The notes beneath the pieces are model-generated. The model did not search any database and was not told the origin of the DNA. It saw only the letters and a list, made by a program, of their open reading frames with translations. Positions 35,445 to 44,073 of a stretch of 53,792 nt of DNA are shown here, in pieces. Within the stretch, counting starts at the first letter, position 1, and each line of letters starts with the position of its first letter. Origin of the DNA: Nitrososphaeria archaeon (GTDB taxonomy: Archaea; Thermoproteota; Nitrososphaeria; Nitrososphaerales; JACAEJ01); the NCBI GenBank assembly GCA_029775875.1, contig JARVKD010000003.1:1-53792 (forward strand), written 5' to 3'. The translations under genes were made by a program, and so were the position numbers.

Positions 35445-35780
35445 TTAATCCTTCTTCAATTCTTTATGAAAACAAGTCTCATTTCCAGTATGGCAGGCTG
35501 GACCTTTCTGATCGACTAGCAATAGTATAGCATCATTATCACAATCTATCATTATGTCTATTACTCTTTGAGTATTTCCTGAAGTTTCTCCCTTCATCCA
35601 TAATTTATTTCTTGATCTGCTCCAATAATGGGCATAACCCGTCTCTATAGTCTTAATCAAGGATTCCTCATTCATATAAGCCAGCATTAGAATCTTCTTA
35701 GTCTTATGATCTTGAGCCACTGCTGGTATGAGGCCTGTGGCTTTATCGAACTTTAATTGTTTTATCTCAATCTTATTCAT
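35445..35780 (-). CDS. hisI: Phosphoribosyl-AMP cyclohydrolase (monofunctional HisI)
   Basis: 111 aa containing GLIPAVAQD....[11 protein letters not shown]...T......WSRSR..LW.KGETSGN.Q.....DCD.D..L..V...GPACHTG. No HisE domain is attached. Confidence 0.9.
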
Positions 35781-36583
35781 GGTCTTATATCGATTCCTCT
35801 CTCTATAAGAAATCTCTTGATGACAGGTATGGGGAATTTATCGTAATGAAATACTGAGGCTGCCAACGCTGCATCTGCCTTGCCTATGGTAAAAGCTTCT
35901 AAGAAATGTTCGGGCTTGCCAGCACCTCCACTGGCTATAACTGGTATATTCACTTTTTCAGATACGGCTCTAGTAAGTTCTAGATCATAACCTATCTCAG
36001 TTCCATCTCTATCCATGGATGTGAGCAGAATCTCACCAGCACCCAATTTAGCAACTTTTTCAGCCCATTCGATCGCATCTATATTGGTTGGTTTCCTCCC
36101 TCCATAAGTGTATACTTCGAACCAGCATTCTCCCTCAGTTGTTCTTGTTATAAAATGACCTTCTCTATCATATCGGCGCTTTGCATCTATGGCTACTACT
36201 ACACATTGAGTACCAAAGACCTTTGCAAGCCTTGAGACTAATTCAGGATTTTCAACAGCAGCAGTGTTTATCGAGACTTTATCTGCTCCACTACATAATA
36301 TCAACCTTGCATCTTCCTCGCTTCTTATTCCTCCTCCAACAGTAAAAGGTATGTTAAGATTTGCTGCAACATCTCTAACCACTTTTTCCAATATCTTTCT
36401 CTTCTCTGGGGATGCAGTTATATCTAAAAATACTAATTCATCAGCCCTTGCTTCACAGTATCTTTGAGCAAGTTCAACAGGGTCGCCAGCATCCCTCAAG
36501 TTTATGAAGTTGATGCCTTTTACTACCCTCCCATGATCCACATCTAAGCATGGTACTATTCTTTTAGACAATGGCATTATCAT
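35777..36583 (-). CDS. hisF: Imidazole glycerol phosphate synthase cyclase subunit HisF
   Basis: [26 protein letters not shown] and the full-length HisF pattern. Confidence 0.93.
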
Positions 36584-37305
36584 CTCTCCTTCTCTATTCT
36601 TATAGCATCTTTTAAAGTGAACTTATTCTCATATAATGCTTTCCCTATCACAACACCATAAACTCCCATATTCTTTAGCATGGATAGATGCTCGAGTTTG
36701 CTAATACCTCCAGCAGCCATTATTTTCGCCTCTTTTATCTTACACATCTCTCTCAATATCTTAAAATCAGGACTGGTCAAAGTTCCATCTCTCTTTATAG
36801 ATGTGATCAAGAAGATCCTTACTCCAAGATCAAGGAAATTCATAATAGCATCACGAATATCAAAATTTGAGGATACTTTCCAACCTCTCAACATGACTTC
36901 TCTCCCATAATGGTCAAGAGATACAACTATTCTCTCATTGCCATATTCTTCTAGAAGCTTTGTTAAAGCTTTTCTATTCTCAAAAGCCATGGTTCCAACT
37001 ATTATCCTTTTTACGCCTATGCTGAACAACTTTTGGGCTATGTCTAAGCTTCTTATACCACCACCAACTTGAAAATTCACATTAAGACTCTTTACCATCT
37101 CTTCTACTATTGACATATTGTCACTAGAGCCTAACGCTGCATCCAAATCTACAATATGAATCATCTTCGCTCCATTTTCTATCCAGATCTTAGCCACACC
37201 AAAAGGATCGCCTAAAGATGAATAGGATTTTGATAGTCTTGGATCTCCTCTTACTAACCTCACAACTTGCCCATCTTTTAAATCGATGGCTGGTATTACT
37301 TCCAA
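36580..37305 (-). CDS. hisA: ProFAR isomerase HisA
   Basis: [19 protein letters not shown] ... GGGIRS ... typical of HisA; overlaps hisF by 4 nt. Confidence 0.92.
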
Positions 37306-37311
37306 TTTAGG

Positions 37312-37914
37312 TCACCTTTTAACCAGTTTCACAAAATTCTCCAAAATAATCTGACCCGCTTCACCAGACTTTTCAGGATGGAACTGTGTGCCATAAAGGT
37401 TCTCATCAGCTACCATGGATGGAAATTTTAATCCATAATCCGTCTCAGTAACTATTACATCTTTTCTTGAAGGTAAAGGATGATATGAGTGCACAAAATA
37501 GGCATAAGAGTTATCGGCTAAGCCTTCTATGATCTCATTATTCTTGACTATCCTTAGATTGTTCCAGCCCATGTGAGGGATTTTAACTTGCTTTGGCAAC
37601 CTTACTACTCTGCCTGGCATCAGATCCAAGCCTTCTCCCTTTCCTTCTTCACTCTTTTTGAAAAAAATTTGCATGCCCAAGCATATGCCCAGTATAGGTA
37701 CGCCTGAATCAGCTATGCTCAAAATCTTTTTCTTGAGTGATCCTATATTCTCCATTGCTTCTGTAAAGCTTCCAACGCCTGGCAAGATCAAACCATCTAT
37801 ATCATTTTGTAAGTCATTTATCGTTGCTATCGTGGGGTTGGCTCCCATTCTTTGCAACGCGCATTTTAAACTGTAAAGGTTTCCTACACCATAGTCCAAG
37901 ATCTTGATATTCAC
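37312..37914 (-). CDS. hisH: Imidazole glycerol phosphate synthase glutaminase subunit HisH
   Basis: Class I amidotransferase with GICLGMQ (catalytic Cys) and the FHPEKSG motif. Confidence 0.92.
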   Translation of the reverse strand: MNIKILDYGVGNLYSLKCALQRMGANPTIATINDLQNDIDGLILPGVGSFTEAMENIGSLKKKILSIADSGVPILGICLGMQIFFKKSEEGKGEGLDLMPGRVVRLPKQVKIPHMGWNNLRIVKNNEIIEGLADNSYAYFVHSYHPLPSRKDVIVTETDYGLKFPSMVADENLYGTQFHPEKSGEAGQIILENFVKLVKR

Positions 37915-38490
37915 TCATATGGCACCTTTCGAACTTGGAATGCCTTTTCTTCTTGGGTCTAGAGATGCTGCCTGCCTGAGAGATAAAGCCAGAGCCTTGA
38001 AGGCTGCCTCTATCTTATGATGATCATTCAATCCATATTGGACTTGCAAATGCAGGTTTGCTTCTAAAGATGAAGATAAAGATTTCAGAAAATGGTAGAT
38101 ATCCTCAGTTTTCATATCCTCTACTGCTTTGCCTTCTAACTTCAGATCGATCACACTGTAAGGTCTTTTCACAAGGTCTATAGCGGCTATTGCAAGAGAG
38201 CAGTCCATAGGTACTATGCTCGATCCGAAGCGATTGATCCCTCCACGATTCCCCAAAGCATTCTTTAAAGCTTCTCCCAATCCTATGGCTATATCTTCTA
38301 TTAAGTGATGCCTCAAATCTCCTTTTGCAATGATGTTGATATCGATCAAGCTATGGGTGGACAGTGTTTTTATCATATGGTTCAGAAATTTTAATCCAGT
38401 CTTTACGCTACTTTTACCTTCCCCATTCAAGTTTACCTTTATATTGACTTCTGTCTCGCTTGTCTTTCTCTCAAATTGAGCCTTACGCAA
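37915..38490 (-). CDS. hisB: Imidazoleglycerol-phosphate dehydratase (monofunctional HisB)
   Basis: RKTSETEV.I...L.G, DLRHHLIEDIAI.LG and NDHHKIEA.FKAL motifs. Confidence 0.92.
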   Translation of the reverse strand: MRKAQFERKTSETEVNIKVNLNGEGKSSVKTGLKFLNHMIKTLSTHSLIDINIIAKGDLRHHLIEDIAIGLGEALKNALGNRGGINRFGSSIVPMDCSLAIAAIDLVKRPYSVIDLKLEGKAVEDMKTEDIYHFLKSLSSSLEANLHLQVQYGLNDHHKIEAAFKALALSLRQAASLDPRRKGIPSSKGAI

Positions 38491-39694
38491 AACCTCTTCC
38501 CTCCTTTATGCATTTTAGAATGAATGGTAATTCCCTTACTGAGGGTATGATCAAATCCGCTCCTTTTTTAATGAAATCTATCTTTTGTTCATCCTTCATG
38601 ATGGAGTGAGCATAAACTCCTCCAAATAAATAGCATGCTTTAGTTTTATTGGCAAGCTCTACCATCATAAGATCTTCCATAGAATCGCCAAGATACAATG
38701 CGAAATTAAAGGGCATAAGACCCTTTGCACAATTTATCAAAGAGTAAGGATTTGGCTTGCTCAAATCAATAATATCTCCTTTCTGCCTTGCTCTTCTCTC
38801 AGCTTCATCTATATCCTCAAGGAATACTTTGGCCTCTGGTCTAAACTCATCTAACAAATCTTTCATAGTGTATTTTGTGGCAGCAAAAGGCCTTCCTGAT
38901 GCTATTCCAAAGTTTGATCTGCCAACCAAAGATGAAATCTCTTTCAGAATTTCTCTATCGATCATGATATTCTCGTTCTCTATCAATCCCTTGCCTTTAT
39001 GAAATTTACAATCTATGCCATAAATTTCTTTAAAGAGATTACATCCTAAGAATTTCTCCTCAAAGATAGTTGTTATAAGGCTCTCTCCAACATTTCCATA
39101 TCGGGAGAGTATATCCTTACCATAGCGTAAAATTTCAAGATCATCTTTTAATGCTAAAGAATTTGAGAAAATATCTCTCTCGAAGAATTTGAAGCCAGAT
39201 GAACTTGCTCTTTCTGCTAAATCGATTAATCTCTTTGACGATTCTTCTGAAATTTTAAAATCAATGTTTTTAGTCTTCTCTTTCAGACAATTTTCGATTA
39301 TAGTTAATCTGTCTAAAGGCTCATCAGCGAATTTGAAAAGCTCTGAATCGATAGTTCTTTTCAATCCTTCTTTTACCTCCTTTGGCATAACAGTAAGAGC
39401 GAGCAAAGATATAGTGTAAGATACTGCCCAGTCGTTGTTGAATCTTCCACCTTTCTTCAGTTGGTAGATCAAATTGTCCAATAACTTTTCTTCGATTCTT
39501 GATCCTGTTAGCCTATTGAATATGTAGTTTACAGTTTCTTTTACAGCCATCAAATAAGATTTCTTTGCATCTATGAGCACTCCATCACAGTCAAAGATTA
39601 CTGCATCAACCTTTGCCAGCTTTTCAATGCTATCCTTTTTTACAAAAGCATCATCACCCTTTAATTTAATGATGGTATAATTCTCTTTCCGCAT
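38483..39694 (-). CDS. HAD-superfamily phosphatase with very large cap insertion (candidate histidinol-phosphate phosphatase)
   Basis: HAD motif I VIFDCDGVLIDA, motif II FGIASGR, motif III LSKPNPY and motif IV YLGDSMEDL, with ~240 aa between motifs I and II. It overlaps hisB by 8 nt and lies 3 nt from hisC. Confidence 0.6.
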   Translation of the reverse strand: MRKENYTIIKLKGDDAFVKKDSIEKLAKVDAVIFDCDGVLIDAKKSYLMAVKETVNYIFNRLTGSRIEEKLLDNLIYQLKKGGRFNNDWAVSYTISLLALTVMPKEVKEGLKRTIDSELFKFADEPLDRLTIIENCLKEKTKNIDFKISEESSKRLIDLAERASSSGFKFFERDIFSNSLALKDDLEILRYGKDILSRYGNVGESLITTIFEEKFLGCNLFKEIYGIDCKFHKGKGLIENENIMIDREILKEISSLVGRSNFGIASGRPFAATKYTMKDLLDEFRPEAKVFLEDIDEAERRARQKGDIIDLSKPNPYSLINCAKGLMPFNFALYLGDSMEDLMMVELANKTKACYLFGGVYAHSIMKDEQKIDFIKKGADLIIPSVRELPFILKCIKEGRGFA

Positions 39695-39697
39695 ACA

Positions 39698-40813
39698 CTA
39701 TTCACTTATCGATGTAAGAGCCTCTATGAAACGATCGTTCATGTATGGCAAGCCTACAGTTACTCTCAAGCAATCCTCTAGGTTCAGTACTTTCCCTATC
39801 TTTCTTACCAATACGCCTTTATCAAAAAGCTCGTTGAAGACTTTCTCATAAGGTCTCATTACTTGAAATAGAATGAAGTTAGCATCGGACTTGAAAGCCC
39901 TTACGCCTTTTATACTGTTCATCCTTTTCATCAATTTTTCTCTTTCTTCCTTCAATTCATCTATGCTCTTCTTGAATCTATCCACCATCTCAAGGACTTT
40001 TAAAGCCAGTCTTAAACCAATGCAATTTAAAGAGTAAGGTAATTGCGCATATTCGAAGATGGCAGTCGAGATTTCACTATTAGATAGAGCGTATCCTATC
40101 CTTACACCAGCAAGACCAAAAGCCTTTGAGAAGGTCCTAGTTACTATGAGGTTCTCATACTTCTTTACTAACTTTACCAGTGAATTCTTTGCAAATTCAA
40201 CATAAGCTTCATCCACTAAAACTAAGCCAGGAAAGTTTTCGATGATAGCTTTCACATCTTCTAACTCGAATTGATTACCCGTTGGATTATTTGGAGAACA
40301 AATAAAGCATATGCCTTTATTACCTTTTGATGATTCTAGAATGCCCTCAACGTCTAGAGAAAAATTTTCCTTCAATGGTATTTCAAAGTATTTAACTCCT
40401 AGATGATTTACAGACCATTTATACATAGAATAAGTAGGCTTGATCGAGATGGCAACGCTATCTTTTCCTAAGAAAGTTCTGATGATAAGGTCTATGATTT
40501 GATCACTTCCATTGCCCAACATTACATAATCAGAAGGCAGACCAACATACTTTCCTATAGCCTTCTTCAGTTCTACCTCTCCTTCCTTTGAATAAAGCCT
40601 TAAATCGATCTCGTTAATTACATCATTTAGAAGAGAGCAAAGAAAATCTTTCGGCAAGAAAAGGTTCTCGTTTTGATTTAATTTGATTACCTTCTCAGCC
40701 TCGATTCCAACTTCTAATGCTACATCTAAAACTGACTCTGGCTTCACATATTTATTAAAGGACTTAATTTCTTTCAATTTGCTTTTAAGCCATTCTTCTG
40801 AATTCTTGTCCAT
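39698..40813 (-). CDS. hisC: Histidinol-phosphate aminotransferase HisC
   Basis: Class II aminotransferase with NPNNPTG-like SPNNPTGN, and TFSKAFGLAGVRIGY carrying the PLP lysine. Confidence 0.9.
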   Translation of the reverse strand: MDKNSEEWLKSKLKEIKSFNKYVKPESVLDVALEVGIEAEKVIKLNQNENLFLPKDFLCSLLNDVINEIDLRLYSKEGEVELKKAIGKYVGLPSDYVMLGNGSDQIIDLIIRTFLGKDSVAISIKPTYSMYKWSVNHLGVKYFEIPLKENFSLDVEGILESSKGNKGICFICSPNNPTGNQFELEDVKAIIENFPGLVLVDEAYVEFAKNSLVKLVKKYENLIVTRTFSKAFGLAGVRIGYALSNSEISTAIFEYAQLPYSLNCIGLRLALKVLEMVDRFKKSIDELKEEREKLMKRMNSIKGVRAFKSDANFILFQVMRPYEKVFNELFDKGVLVRKIGKVLNLEDCLRVTVGLPYMNDRFIEALTSISE

Positions 40814-40817
40814 ATTA

Positions 40818-42113
40818 TCACTTTAAATAAGATTTTGAAGAACTATCTTTGACTCTCTCCTCTATGGCTATGGCATGGTTTATCAAGCCTTCTTTACGGG
40901 CTAAGGTGCTGATAGGCTTCATCATTTTAAGCAAACCTTCCTTTGAGCATTTCACCACACTAACTCTCTTCACAAAGTCCATTACGGAAAGGTTAGAGTA
41001 GACTTTGGCAGAGCCTCCTGTAGGCAATATGTGATTAGTACCGATACAATAATCTCCAGCAGGTACAGGACTGTAAGGACCTAAGAAGATCATCCCAGAA
41101 GATCTTATCTGCTTAGCAATTTTATCAGATTGCTTTGTTACTATCTCTAAATGCTCAGGAGCAAAATCATTCACAAATTCTACTGCTTCATTCATCTCAT
41201 CACAAATTACAATAAAGCCATTTTGAGTAAGAGCCTTTTTAATTATCTCTACTCTCTCTAGATTTACCATAATTCTTTCCAACTCTGCTATGACTTTACT
41301 TGCTAATTCTTTTGATGTAGTGACCAATCCACAAATGCTATCTGGGGAGTGCTCAGCTTGTGAAATCATATCAAGGGCAATGAAGTATGGATTTGCTGAA
41401 TCATCGGCAATTATCAGTATTTCGCTAGGACCTGCTGGCATATCTATGGCTACATCTTTTGATACTAATATCTTGGCAGTAGTTACATATCTATTTCCAG
41501 GTCCTACTATCTTTTTAACAGGCTTTACACTCTCAGTACCGTAGGCTAAAGCTGCTATGGCATGAGCCCCTCCTATTTTGTATATTTCATCTACACCACA
41601 AATATCTGCAGCAACGAGAAGAATTGGATTGAGATTGCCATCACTCATAGGTGGTGAACAAATAGCTATGCGTGGCACTTTTGCAACCTTTGCTGGAACT
41701 ACTGCCATGAGAAGGCTACTTGGATAAGGTGAATAACCTCCTGGGACATAGCAACCTACGCTCTCAATAGGCAATGCTAGATTGATTACCTGAACATTCT
41801 TTTCTTCATCATACCATTTGAATTTCAACTTTTTGAGGATAGTATTTTGAAAACCTTCAATTCTTTTTTTTGTGAATTTTAAGGCAGAGATTTCATCTTC
41901 ATTGATACTCTCATAAGCTTTATCAATTTCTTCTCTCCCGACTATGAATTTATCAACATCAGCCTTCACTCCATCATATTTTTTGATAAAATTGGCTAAG
42001 GCTTTATCGCCATTCTTTTTAACTTCATTTATTATCTCTTTGACATAGTTCTCTAATTCGCTAAACCACTTAAGTGAATAATATGATCTTTCTTCAAGAA
42101 GTTGGCGGGGCAC
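40818..42113 (-). CDS. hisD: Histidinol dehydrogenase HisD
   Basis: VGCYVPGG...YPSS, QAEH and APEHLE motifs. Confidence 0.93.
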   Translation of the reverse strand: MPRQLLEERSYYSLKWFSELENYVKEIINEVKKNGDKALANFIKKYDGVKADVDKFIVGREEIDKAYESINEDEISALKFTKKRIEGFQNTILKKLKFKWYDEEKNVQVINLALPIESVGCYVPGGYSPYPSSLLMAVVPAKVAKVPRIAICSPPMSDGNLNPILLVAADICGVDEIYKIGGAHAIAALAYGTESVKPVKKIVGPGNRYVTTAKILVSKDVAIDMPAGPSEILIIADDSANPYFIALDMISQAEHSPDSICGLVTTSKELASKVIAELERIMVNLERVEIIKKALTQNGFIVICDEMNEAVEFVNDFAPEHLEIVTKQSDKIAKQIRSSGMIFLGPYSPVPAGDYCIGTNHILPTGGSAKVYSNLSVMDFVKRVSVVKCSKEGLLKMMKPISTLARKEGLINHAIAIEERVKDSSSKSYLK

Positions 42114-42142
42114 ATCTGAAACCTTCCACGATCTTATTATGG

Positions 42143-43123
42143 CTAATCACCTTTCTTCTTGTTAAAAATCTCATCAAGAGATAGAACTTGTCTTGGTTCA
42201 TAGACTACAAGACCTTGGGCTAACTTCCTCAACTTCGGCAAAAGCTCGATGAAGATCTTTCTATCTATGACTGTATTCACAGAGTACCAGCCCTTCTCTG
42301 AGAGGGGAGATATAGTAGGTCTTTTTAGAGCTGGTAATTGCCTCAAAAGTTTCTGAAGATTAGCCTCACTTACATTTACGAATATGTGCAATCTTTTTCT
42401 TCCATCGACCACTCCTTTGAGCAATGTGAATATATCGTAGATCTTTTCTCTCTTCTCTGAGTCTTTCAAAGAATTCTTGTTTGCAATTAAATAGGCTGTA
42501 GACTCACATATAGTTTCGATAATCTTTAGATTGTTTTGCTCAAGGGTTGTGCCAGTCTCTGTAACATCGACTATAGCATCTGCATTTTCTGGTGGCTTTG
42601 CTTCTGTCGCTCCAAAAGACAGGAATACACTCACACTAGGATTGTTGCCTATTCTCCACCATGGAGTTATGACCAAGGGATCAAGATCGCCATAGTGGTT
42701 TTTATATGCTGGATTAGACTTGAGGTATGAAACAGTGGTGTTAAGGTATTCTGTCGAAATTCTTAATTCTTTCTTCTCCTTCCAAAATTTCTCAATGAGC
42801 TGAGAAAGCGAATCTATCGTCCAAGGCTTAGGAACTGCCAATACAAGCTTAATTGTACCATACTCTAAATTCAGAAGGACTTCTACATCAGAATTTGTCT
42901 CTTTTATCCAATCCAATCCAGTTATTCCTATATCCTGAAGACCTTCTGCTACATAGATAGGTATCTCTTGTGGTCTTAATATTCTAGGCTCTATCTCAGG
43001 ATCATTTATAGATGGGCGATATGTGCGCTCCTGCCCTGATAACTTGTATCCAGCTTTGCCAAGGATCTCAAAAGTAGCATTTTCAAGAGAGCCTTTAGGA
43101 AGGGCAAACCTCACTTTAGTCAA
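42143..43123 (-). CDS. hisG: ATP phosphoribosyltransferase, long form (HisG with C-terminal regulatory domain)
   Basis: FALPKGSL start, DIGITG and TGTTL motifs, and a HisG_C-like tail (...PTISPLSEKGWYSVNTVI...). Uses a TTG start. Confidence 0.88.
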   Translation of the reverse strand: MTKVRFALPKGSLENATFEILGKAGYKLSGQERTYRPSINDPEIEPRILRPQEIPIYVAEGLQDIGITGLDWIKETNSDVEVLLNLEYGTIKLVLAVPKPWTIDSLSQLIEKFWKEKKELRISTEYLNTTVSYLKSNPAYKNHYGDLDPLVITPWWRIGNNPSVSVFLSFGATEAKPPENADAIVDVTETGTTLEQNNLKIIETICESTAYLIANKNSLKDSEKREKIYDIFTLLKGVVDGRKRLHIFVNVSEANLQKLLRQLPALKRPTISPLSEKGWYSVNTVIDRKIFIELLPKLRKLAQGLVVYEPRQVLSLDEIFNKKKGD

Positions 43124-43533: not shown

Positions 43534-43842
43534 TTATTGGACTTCTATCGAAGACTCGTTAAAGCCTAACCAAACTAATTCTTCTTTGACGTTATCTCTA
43601 TGATCCCCTTGTAAGAGTACGTAACCATCCTTCACAGTTCCACCACAAGCCAGTTTCGTTTTCAGCTTCTGCACTATCTTATTCAGATCGGTTCGCTTTG
43701 GGTTAAGCCCCTCAATTATAGTAGTAGGTTTAGAGAATCTCCTCATCTCAAGACGGACGACAACTCTTGTTTCGCCTTTTTCTAACTCTTCACAAACACA
43801 AAGATCGGTAGGTAACCCGCATTTTTTACATACGCTTGTCAT
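43534..43842 (-). CDS. sui1: Translation initiation factor aSUI1 (aIF1)
   Basis: N-terminal CKKCGLPTDLCVCE Zn knuckle plus the SUI1 core (VT.IEGL......L..KLK..LACGGTVKDG.V.LQGDHR..V...L...GF). The start is taken at the second Met (43842). Confidence 0.88.
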   Translation of the reverse strand: MTSVCKKCGLPTDLCVCEELEKGETRVVVRLEMRRFSKPTTIIEGLNPKRTDLNKIVQKLKTKLACGGTVKDGYVLLQGDHRDNVKEELVWLGFNESSIEVQ

Positions 43843-44073
43843 GCATCGGCCTCCGCACATCTGCTAAACAATTTTGCAGTATGGGCTGATACTTCTATAA
43901 GGAGACAGTCTTTACATATTGGTGTGAATTCTTGTGTTCTCATAGATATTCTAATTTGATTTCTACAGCGGACTTTCAACATCTGATTAATGATGAGTAC
44001 AGAGGTTATTTAAATATTTAGGCTCAACGTTTACTTAATAAGGAATCCATCTTGGAAGGAAGGGAATTGAATC

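Follow-up and report, generated by a model that had tools for sequence, protein, structure and literature searches.

The 403-residue HAD-superfamily protein encoded between hisC and hisB in the histidine operon of an uncultured Nitrososphaeria archaeon (hereinafter X) is very probably a histidinol-phosphate phosphatase (HolPase; EC 3.1.3.15, catalyzing step 8, the second-to-last in histidine synthesis) of the archaeal nmHisN/toHisN/Tt82 HAD family, an activity that we infer from the combined weight of nmHisN biochemistry, homology, retained fingerprint residues, synteny, phyletic pattern, the lack of an alternative phosphatase in the genome, and structure. Rather than a discovery, it adds a divergent member to an established family: an enzyme related to it and encoded at the equivalent place in the operon was shown in 2024 to catalyze this step. 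The gene lies in a window of 53,792 nucleotides (the whole stretch of DNA analyzed; contig JARVKD010000003.1), where ORF calls and Pfam searches delineated the following operon:

35445..43123, minus strand: whole his operon, hisG-D-C-X-B-H-A-F-I, with gaps of -8 to +29 nt between genes (ORF calls and Pfam)
42143-43123, minus strand: hisG (Pfam)
40818-42113, minus strand: hisD (Pfam)
39698..40813, minus strand: hisC, histidinol-phosphate aminotransferase (PF00155, E 5e-55)
38483..39694, minus strand: X, 403-aa HAD-superfamily phosphatase, homologue of the nmHisN-type histidinol-phosphate phosphatase (ORF with ATG start; PF00702; BLASTP)
37915..38490, minus strand: hisB, IGP dehydratase only, without a fused phosphatase (PF00475, E 3.5e-50)
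between hisB and hisI, minus strand: hisH, hisA, and hisF (Pfam)
35445-35780, minus strand: hisI, cyclohydrolase only (Pfam)

The plus strand across 38483-39694 gives a translation riddled with stops, and the minus strand yields the 403-residue ORF starting at an ATG; as 1653 homologues were recovered (best E 1e-243), this ORF is not a product of chance. Pfam assigns it to PF00702 (29 bits). The ORF and its Pfam-defined neighbors agree with the original prediction of a compact operon in which a 403-aa HAD gene separates hisC from hisB, and both junctions read in the sequence as it had described them: the TAG of hisC is followed by TGT and then by the ATG of X, leaving a 3-nt gap, and the stop of X overlaps the TTG start of hisB by 8 nt (TTGCGTAA). 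This TTG, which is preceded by a GGAGG at a distance of about 9 nt, is the choice of the ORF caller; the next in-frame Met would truncate the IGPD domain. No hisE was found in the operon or the window, where the ORF upstream of hisG codes for a SUI1 protein. The product of HisC is L-histidinol phosphate, the substrate of step 8.

The functional precedent is nmHisN, the product of the HAD gene Nmar_1556 that separates hisC from hisB in Nitrosopumilus maritimus (Kinateder, Mayer, Nazet, and Sterner, 2024, Protein Sci 33:e4899; PMC10804674). In vitro, purified nmHisN hydrolyzed histidinol phosphate with a kcat of 0.79 s-1 and a KM of 73 μM and had no activity on nine other phosphoesters, ATP and PRPP being among the substrates tested; its annotation was extended to homologues from Thaumarchaeota and Bathyarchaeota (PMC10804674). 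As related by Kinateder et al., Fondi et al., 2009, had already drawn attention to a hydrolase gene in the hisC-hisB interval of Thaumarchaeota (PMC10804674). The proposal that X is the missing archaeal histidinol-phosphate phosphatase is supported as to function, every in silico check suggested with it having favored it, among them the his linkage of orthologues and the lack of an alternative phosphatase type in the genome, but its premise of a "missing" enzyme was outdated by nmHisN in 2024 (PMC10804674). In BLASTP searches X aligns end to end with the operon homologue of a Nitrosopumilus sp. (27% identity over 377 aa, E 4e-29). Like nmHisN, to which it shows full-length homology, X is a HAD protein whose motif I is followed by one large cap made up of helices only, and it occupies the same hisC-hisB slot in a hisG-D-C-X-B-H-A-F-I operon. 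However, X is just 25-30% identical to the assayed nmHisN and about 100 residues longer, with a 23-aa N-terminal β-hairpin extension, a 45-aa three-helix insert in the cap, and a 12-aa insert before motif III.

A second relevant branch is formed by toHisN of Thermococcus onnurineus (Lee et al., 2008, cited in PMC10804674) together with its relative Tt82 from Thermococcus thioreducens; both belong to the same HAD lineage as X. The family profile of X matches the Tt82 structure (6IAH; E 5e-15), and the model of X superimposes on it with Z 18.4 and an rmsd of 3.4 Å over 239 residues; in comparison with X, Tt82 is only 240 aa long and has a much smaller cap. A bacterial origin is assumed for the his genes of Thermococcales (PMC10804674).

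Translation, alignment, and modeling of X located the following elements:

39569..39595, minus strand: HAD motif I, FDCDGVLID, residues 34-42, with nucleophile D35 and acid/base D37 (translation)
38891..38902, minus strand: HAD motif II, ASGR, residues 265-268, with S266 (translation, alignment)
38744..38758, minus strand: HAD motif III, KPNPY, residues 313-317, with K313 (translation, alignment)
38669..38689, minus strand: HAD motif IV, GDSMEDL, residues 336-342, with D337 and D341 (translation, alignment)
38996..39568, minus strand: all-helical C1-type cap, residues 43-233, ten helices (AlphaFold2 model)
39260..39394, minus strand: insertion of 45 residues in the cap (101-145), adding three helices that the characterized Nitrosopumilus-type enzyme lacks (BLASTP gap, alignment, and comparison of two models)

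The presence of four intact HAD motifs, as originally proposed, was confirmed by the translation and by conservation across 143 homologues, in which D35, D37, S266, K313, D337, and D341 vary little or not at all (D35 and D37 are kept in 142/143). The AlphaFold2 model (pLDDT 91.5, pTM 0.90) displays one large helical cap after motif I and no second cap. The large cap inferred earlier is therefore real, but smaller than the claimed ~240 residues: the helical cap spans ~190 residues and the distance between motifs I and II is 229. The equivalent cap in the model of the 306-aa AOA form has seven long helices, three fewer than X. Among solved structures the best match to the model is 1QYI, a large-cap HAD (Z 23.9, 332 residues aligned; Q8NW41, structural-genomics target ZR25), a 380-aa protein without an assigned function that is ~18-20% identical to X and has in common with it a FEE..G..LF segment leading from the cap to the core and an insert before KPNPF.

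Based on general HAD chemistry and the work on nmHisN, the reaction catalyzed by X may be envisaged as follows. D35, D337, and D341 would hold the Mg2+ ion, S266 and K313 would bind the phosphate, and D35 would attack the phosphate of the L-histidinol phosphate delivered by the upstream HisC, with D37 acting as the predicted general acid/base. The helical cap would close over the site, with the histidinol part probably read via Y47, K80, and D88 along with the hydrophobic V51 and I76; the pocket would then have to work without an Asp25 equivalent (L48 in X). The histidinol released would pass to HisD.

The residues invoked here in substrate reading derive from the published nmHisN fingerprint. 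A 306-aa Nitrosopumilaceae homologue (L023) fits the published nmHisN numbering at 7/7 scanned positions, which fixes the register between X and nmHisN and gives the following correspondences:

39551..39556, minus strand: Y47-L48, equivalent to fingerprint Y24-D25 of nmHisN; ungapped register ten residues after motif I, with Tyr kept and Asp replaced by Leu
39455..39457, minus strand: K80, equivalent to nmHisN K56 (alignments; column K 90/143, R 53/143)
39431..39433, minus strand: D88, corresponding to nmHisN E64; toHisN and Tt82 likewise have Asp (alignments; column D 123/143, E 20/143)

X thus retains the equivalents of Y24, K56, and E64 (as Asp), and those of the accessory I28 and I52, which are V51 and I76 in X and preserve the hydrophobic character. 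K56 gave the strongest effect in the alanine scan of nmHisN (PMC10804674). At the position of Asp25, one of the four fingerprint residues, however, X has Leu (L48), and because the alignment is ungapped from motif I, the register there is unambiguous; the fingerprint of X hence reads Y-L-K-D as against the toHisN-type Y-D-R-D of Tt82. Every relative sharing ≥45% identity carries L, F, or I at this position, and the X clade has also lost two further acidic cap residues that are otherwise conserved in the family (Asp replaced by Ala at 90 and by Ser at 164). A search for a conserved acidic gain in the X clade that might replace Asp25 found none, the sole changes being Phe to Tyr at 317 and 355. 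In nmHisN the D25A mutation lowers kcat/KM ~220-fold, and the HolPase status of D25N variants was left undecided by Kinateder et al. (PMC10804674). Nevertheless, position 48 is highly variable among operon-embedded homologues (D, N, G, S, Y, E, L, and F), and an Asp there is therefore no universal requirement of the family. The Leu48 substitution, the losses at A90 and S164, the 25-30% identity, and the three extra cap helices are points that weigh against the main reading; given the Asp25 change, the two further acidic losses, and the longer cap, we word the activity of X as inferred.

Gene neighborhoods supply a further line of evidence. In the orthologue survey for his linkage that had been suggested as a check, a homologue lies directly upstream of hisB in a his operon in 23/25 archaeal loci (from Nitrosopumilaceae, Bathyarchaeia, and Odinarchaeia); two distant homologues (L012 and L014) lie outside his clusters. 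The same arrangement was seen in 18/18 same-order genomes examined, six of which belong to the family of X itself and share the Leu/Phe variant. Within the order the X family tracks hisB: it is present in 27/31 genomes and hisB in 28/31, and the three without hisB are also without X. The long-cap form (~400 aa) is the more widespread one in the Bathyarchaeia and non-AOA Nitrososphaerota sampled. In a midpoint-rooted FastTree phylogeny, the root of which is unreliable, the AOA short forms constitute one clade and X falls among the long forms; the analysis shows the assayed 306-aa AOA enzyme to be a shortened form, with no ancestral cap length assigned given the unreliable root.

No other HolPase type was recovered from the 94%-complete genome. 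The phosphatase domain HisB-N of E. coli and Salmonella (a DDDD-type HAD; TIGR01656/TIGR01261) shares with X the HAD chemistry, the reaction, and a gene-order position between hisC and the dehydratase, but differs in its HAD subfamily, tiny loop caps, Zn site, and fusion to the dehydratase. Against TIGR01656, X reaches no more than 12 bits (cut-off 84.15), in line with the earlier assertion that it is a HAD type other than enterobacterial HisB-N; recruitment independent of HisB-N was argued by Kinateder et al. (PMC10804674). Searches of X against the models for paHisN (NF052360, the Pseudomonas-type HolPase), IMPase-type HisN (TIGR02067), and PHP-type HisJ/K (PF02811) gave no match at E up to 1. 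Its best NCBIfam model is TIGR01548 (HAD-SF-IA-hyp1, a hypothetical equivalog), with 60.4 bits against a cut-off of 140.2; the Nitrosopumilus and Bathyarchaeia forms likewise score below the cut-off of 140 (76 and 63 bits, respectively), and the 197 positions of this model do not cover the large cap. A PHP, HisN, or HisB-N phosphatase elsewhere in the genome had been named as a finding that would speak against X, and none was found in the genome of the organism (1.23 Mb, 94% complete). No PHP domain (PF02811) was detected in this 94%-complete assembly. Its single IMPase (PF00459) is of the archaeal FBPase/IMPase type (258 bits, versus 86 bits to HisN with a cut-off of 275); its SerB-like protein is a true ACT-SerB (265 bits, versus 36 bits to the Pseudomonas-type HolPase model with a cut-off of 280); and its matches to TIGR01656 are all below the cut-off and to generic HAD-IA genes. 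The genome also codes for three small HAD-IA paralogues, which could be promiscuous, a point against the main reading of X.

These paralogues figure in one alternative, namely that X has drifted away from histidinol phosphate or become broad in specificity, with its operon place being historical or reflecting a related role, and that a promiscuous small HAD-IA protein performs step 8. The loss of three conserved acidic cap residues, the Asp25 equivalent included, the availability of three other HAD-IA genes, and the location of L012 and L014 outside his clusters are compatible with such a drift; we nonetheless consider it unlikely, as the slot immediately upstream of hisB is kept in 6/6 genomes of its own family with the same substitutions, the gene tracks hisB across the order, Y47, K80, and D88 are kept, and X overlaps or abuts both neighbors. 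The same pocket changes admit a wider reading, which we regard as very unlikely, in which the pocket of the X clade (Y-[L/F/I]-K-D, three conserved carboxylates missing from the cap and three helices added to it) has been re-wired for a changed or a further substrate, possibly phosphoribosyl-ATP.

The specific form of this, a second activity of X in phosphoribosyl-ATP hydrolysis (the HisE step) through its enlarged and less acidic cap, draws on the failure to detect a HisE/MazG-type gene in the organism's own genome or in 27/31 genomes of the same order, which include several closed ones; the literature on hisE in Nitrosopumilus yielded nothing useful. HAD-family pyrophosphatases are known, one of them (BT2127) being a fold match of X, and the nmHisN substrate panel contained ATP and PRPP but no phosphoribosyl-ATP (PMC10804674). 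However, nmHisN leaves ATP and PRPP untouched (PMC10804674), and the nucleotide is a much larger substrate than histidinol phosphate. Moreover, HisE absence is equally frequent among the AOA short-cap forms, and the enlarged cap is therefore uncorrelated with it. We accordingly deem this second activity extremely unlikely; were it real, the X clade would fill the HisE gap across most genomes of the order. A milder version, that X binds histidinol phosphate without the Asp worth ~220-fold in nmHisN, is close to implied if X is a HolPase, and would mean that the published fingerprint under-calls true HolPases.

With X read as a HolPase, naming it closes step 8 for the lineage, and the practical value lies in annotation. 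Histidinol-phosphate phosphatase is still the commonest remaining gap reported by pathway tools (PMC13759103), and NCBIfam release 20 contains no dedicated model for the nmHisN type, as a result of which public records still list these genes as "hypothetical protein," "HAD family hydrolase," or "phosphoglycolate phosphatase-like HAD hydrolase." The finding neither opens nor settles a major question. The clade with Leu in place of Asp25 can serve as a natural experiment on how reliable the published fingerprint residues are.

The 403-aa HAD-superfamily gene (hereinafter X) belongs to a nine-gene minus-strand his operon, in which the genes are unambiguously named by Pfam and X is an ATG-initiated ORF:

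42143-43123, minus strand, hisG
40818-42113, minus strand, hisD
39698-40813, minus strand, hisC
38483-39694, minus strand, X (403 aa)
37915-38490, minus strand, hisB (IGP dehydratase only)
37312-37914, minus strand, hisH
36580-37305, minus strand, hisA
35777-36583, minus strand, hisF
35445-35780, minus strand, hisI (cyclohydrolase only)

Intergenic spacing across the operon ranges from -8 to +29 nt. The hisC stop (TAG) is followed by TGT and then the ATG of X, and the stop of X is overlapped by the TTG start of hisB (TTGCGTAA), with a GGAGG ~9 nt upstream of the TTG; in translation, the plus strand of 38483-39694 is interrupted by many stops. Upstream of hisG, a 108-aa ORF (43534-43860, minus strand) codes for the translation factor SUI1/aSUI1 (PF01253) rather than a his gene.

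The four HAD motifs listed in the original prediction were recovered in X (FDCDGVLID, residues 34-42; ASGR, 265-268; KPNPY, 313-317; GDSMEDL, 336-342). Gene and motifs thus stand as claimed, but the cap had been overestimated at ~240 residues (the helical cap proper has ~190, with motifs I and II 229 residues apart), and the gene lies on the minus strand. The Pfam match of X is confined to the N-terminal HAD motif (PF00702, 29 bits), and its top NCBIfam model is TIGR01548, a HAD subfamily IA 'hypothetical equivalog' (60 bits, cut-off 140). That X is of a HAD type other than the enterobacterial HisB N-terminal phosphatase domain (HisB-N) is borne out by a score of 12 bits on the model of that domain (cut-off 84). 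Homologues in the protein database number 1653; nearly all are ~400 aa and most are labeled hypothetical or 'phosphoglycolate phosphatase-like', with 60-93% identity to X in Nitrososphaerales and 'Methylarchaceae' MAGs and ~40% in Bathyarchaeia.

In Thaumarchaeota, Fondi et al., 2009, had noted that hisC and hisB flank an uncharacterized hydrolase gene, and this note was the starting point of the work of Kinateder, Mayer, Nazet and Sterner (Protein Sci 2024; PMC10804674). They purified the Nitrosopumilus maritimus product Nmar_1556 (nmHisN), which acts on histidinol phosphate with a kcat of 0.79 s-1 and a KM of 73 uM and hydrolyzed none of nine other phosphoesters; an alanine scan yielded the fingerprint Y24-D25-K56-E64 with accessory I28 and I52. 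In their sequence-similarity network, thaumarchaeal and bathyarchaeal homologues fall together in a single cluster. The authors accepted YDKE, YDRD and YDKD sequences as histidinol-phosphate phosphatases (HolPases) and reached no decision on D25N variants (PMC10804674). Our literature search found no mention of nmHisN in further papers. Accordingly, the functional idea behind the proposal of X as the 'missing' archaeal phosphatase holds, but for the family the question had already been answered (Kinateder et al., 2024; PMC10804674).

The his linkage anticipated for orthologues was recovered almost throughout the family. Species-representative genomes yielded 28 loci when scanned. Among 25 archaeal loci from the genome collection, 23, Bathyarchaeia and one Odinarchaeia contig included, place the homologue immediately upstream of hisB in a his operon. 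Nitrosopumilus, Nitrosarchaeum, Nitrosotenuis, Nitrosotalea and Cenarchaeum share the order hisG-D-C-X-B-H-A-F-I, with a 306-328-aa homologue between hisC and hisB. The two exceptions, in a Nitrososphaerota MAG (L012:4995-6137) and a Caldarchaeum MAG (L014:4965-6125), are divergent copies outside any his cluster. Both carry Asn in place of the first motif IV Asp, as well as a Thr in motif II, and may be paralogues that serve another function. One Bathyarchaeia contig has, besides the hisC/hisB copy, a second HAD paralogue of 372 aa just downstream of hisI (L010:6504-7622). A 324-kb contig binned as a Blastocatellia bacterium (CALHAI010000004.1) carries a complete archaeal-style hisG-D-C-X-B-H-A-F-I with a 415-aa homologue, reflecting either horizontal transfer or mis-binning. 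In an Asgard Odinarchaeia MAG (JAHQXC010000031.1), an X homologue begins after hisG-D-C and is cut off by the contig end, which takes this gene order beyond Nitrososphaerota and Bathyarchaeia.

In separately fetched genomes of the same order, the homologue is upstream of hisB in 18/18 operons, eight of which (L054-L061) lack hisC and place the HAD gene directly after hisD (hisG-D-X-B-H-A-F-I); hence, hisB and not hisC is the constant neighbor. Among 31 same-order genomes, the X family occurs in 27 and hisB in 28, and the three without hisB are also without X (the counts are descriptive, with no statistical test, as the genomes are related). An apparent separation of X from hisB in G029 is a contig break between them. 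In one genome, G015 (C86:1500-10500), the operon runs hisG-D-C-B-H-A-F-I, hisC and hisB are not separated by a HAD gene, and the whole assembly gives no X-family match at E<=1e-10; it may use a different phosphatase.

A rival PHP, HisN or HisB-N phosphatase elsewhere in the genome would have weakened the assignment, but none was found in the organism's own assembly (1.23 Mb, 54 contigs, 94% complete): there is no PHP domain and no HisB-N-type gene above the model cut-off. The single IMPase-family gene scores 258 bits on the archaeal FBPase/IMPase model and 86 bits on that of HisN (cut-off 275), and a SerB-like gene scores 36 bits as a Pseudomonas-type HolPase (cut-off 280) and is a genuine ACT-SerB. 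Three generic small HAD-IA paralogues are left. The same genome yields no match to PF01503, TIGR03188 or MazG (PF03819) for HisE (phosphoribosyl-ATP pyrophosphatase), and PF01503 went undetected in 27/31 same-order genomes, closed ones at 99-100% completeness included; across the order, the HisE step is apparently a gap with no assigned gene.

An AlphaFold2 model of X built on 20 homologues (pLDDT 91.5, pTM 0.90) displays a Rossmann-like core, an N-terminal beta-hairpin and a ten-helix cap at residues 43-233. Its top solved match is 1QYI, a 380-aa HAD of unknown function (Z 23.9, 332 residues); Tt82 of Thermococcus thioreducens (6IAH; Z 18.4, 239 residues) also matches, and ordinary small-cap HAD-IA phosphatases rank after both (Z 16-17). 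Sequence-profile searches recovered the same pair (6IAH, E 5e-15; 1QYI, E 4e-7). Unlike the short AOA enzyme of the Nitrosopumilus type, X is extended by 23 residues at the N-terminus and carries inserts of 45 residues (101-145) and of 12 residues (before motif III), plus a short one near residue 195. The modeled 306-aa form (pLDDT 93.6) has seven long cap helices; comparison of the two models places the three additional helices of X in insert 101-145. In a midpoint-rooted tree, whose root is insecure, short forms form one clade and X falls among the widespread long forms.

X aligns end-to-end with a Nitrosopumilus sp. protein (27% identity over 377 aa, E 4e-29). Using as ruler a 306-aa Nitrosopumilaceae protein (L023) with I20, Y24, D25, I28, I52, K56 and E64 at the published numbers, the alignments show that X retains three of the four fingerprint residues, namely Y24 (Y47), K56 (K80) and E64 (as Asp, D88, like Tt82 and its Thermococcus onnurineus relative toHisN), and both accessory residues, I28 (as hydrophobic V51) and I52 (I76). 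The equivalent of D25 is lost to L48, a register that is certain because motif I to position 48 is ungapped in both proteins. Leu, Phe or Ile occupies this position in every sequence at least 45% identical to X, and in 6/6 examined genomes of its taxonomic family, each with the gene in an intact his operon. Two more acidic residues, conserved in the remaining long forms and the short forms, are replaced in this clade: an Asp shortly after the FNNDW motif by A90, and another by S164. A search of the alignment for a conserved acidic gain in the clade found none. Because position 48 varies among operon-embedded members (D, N, G, S, Y, E, L, F), the alignment argues that Asp25 matters in nmHisN, yet would not be required by the family as a whole.

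The reasoning of the original prediction was sound, and every computational check it proposed came out favorably: X is very probably the histidinol-phosphate phosphatase of its his operon. Since the family and operon position were experimentally established in 2024, it would add a new, divergent representative to an already known type of enzyme. The Leu48 clade would then retain this activity without the Asp25 carboxylate; a shifted or added specificity of the clade is unlikely, with nothing positive in its favor.
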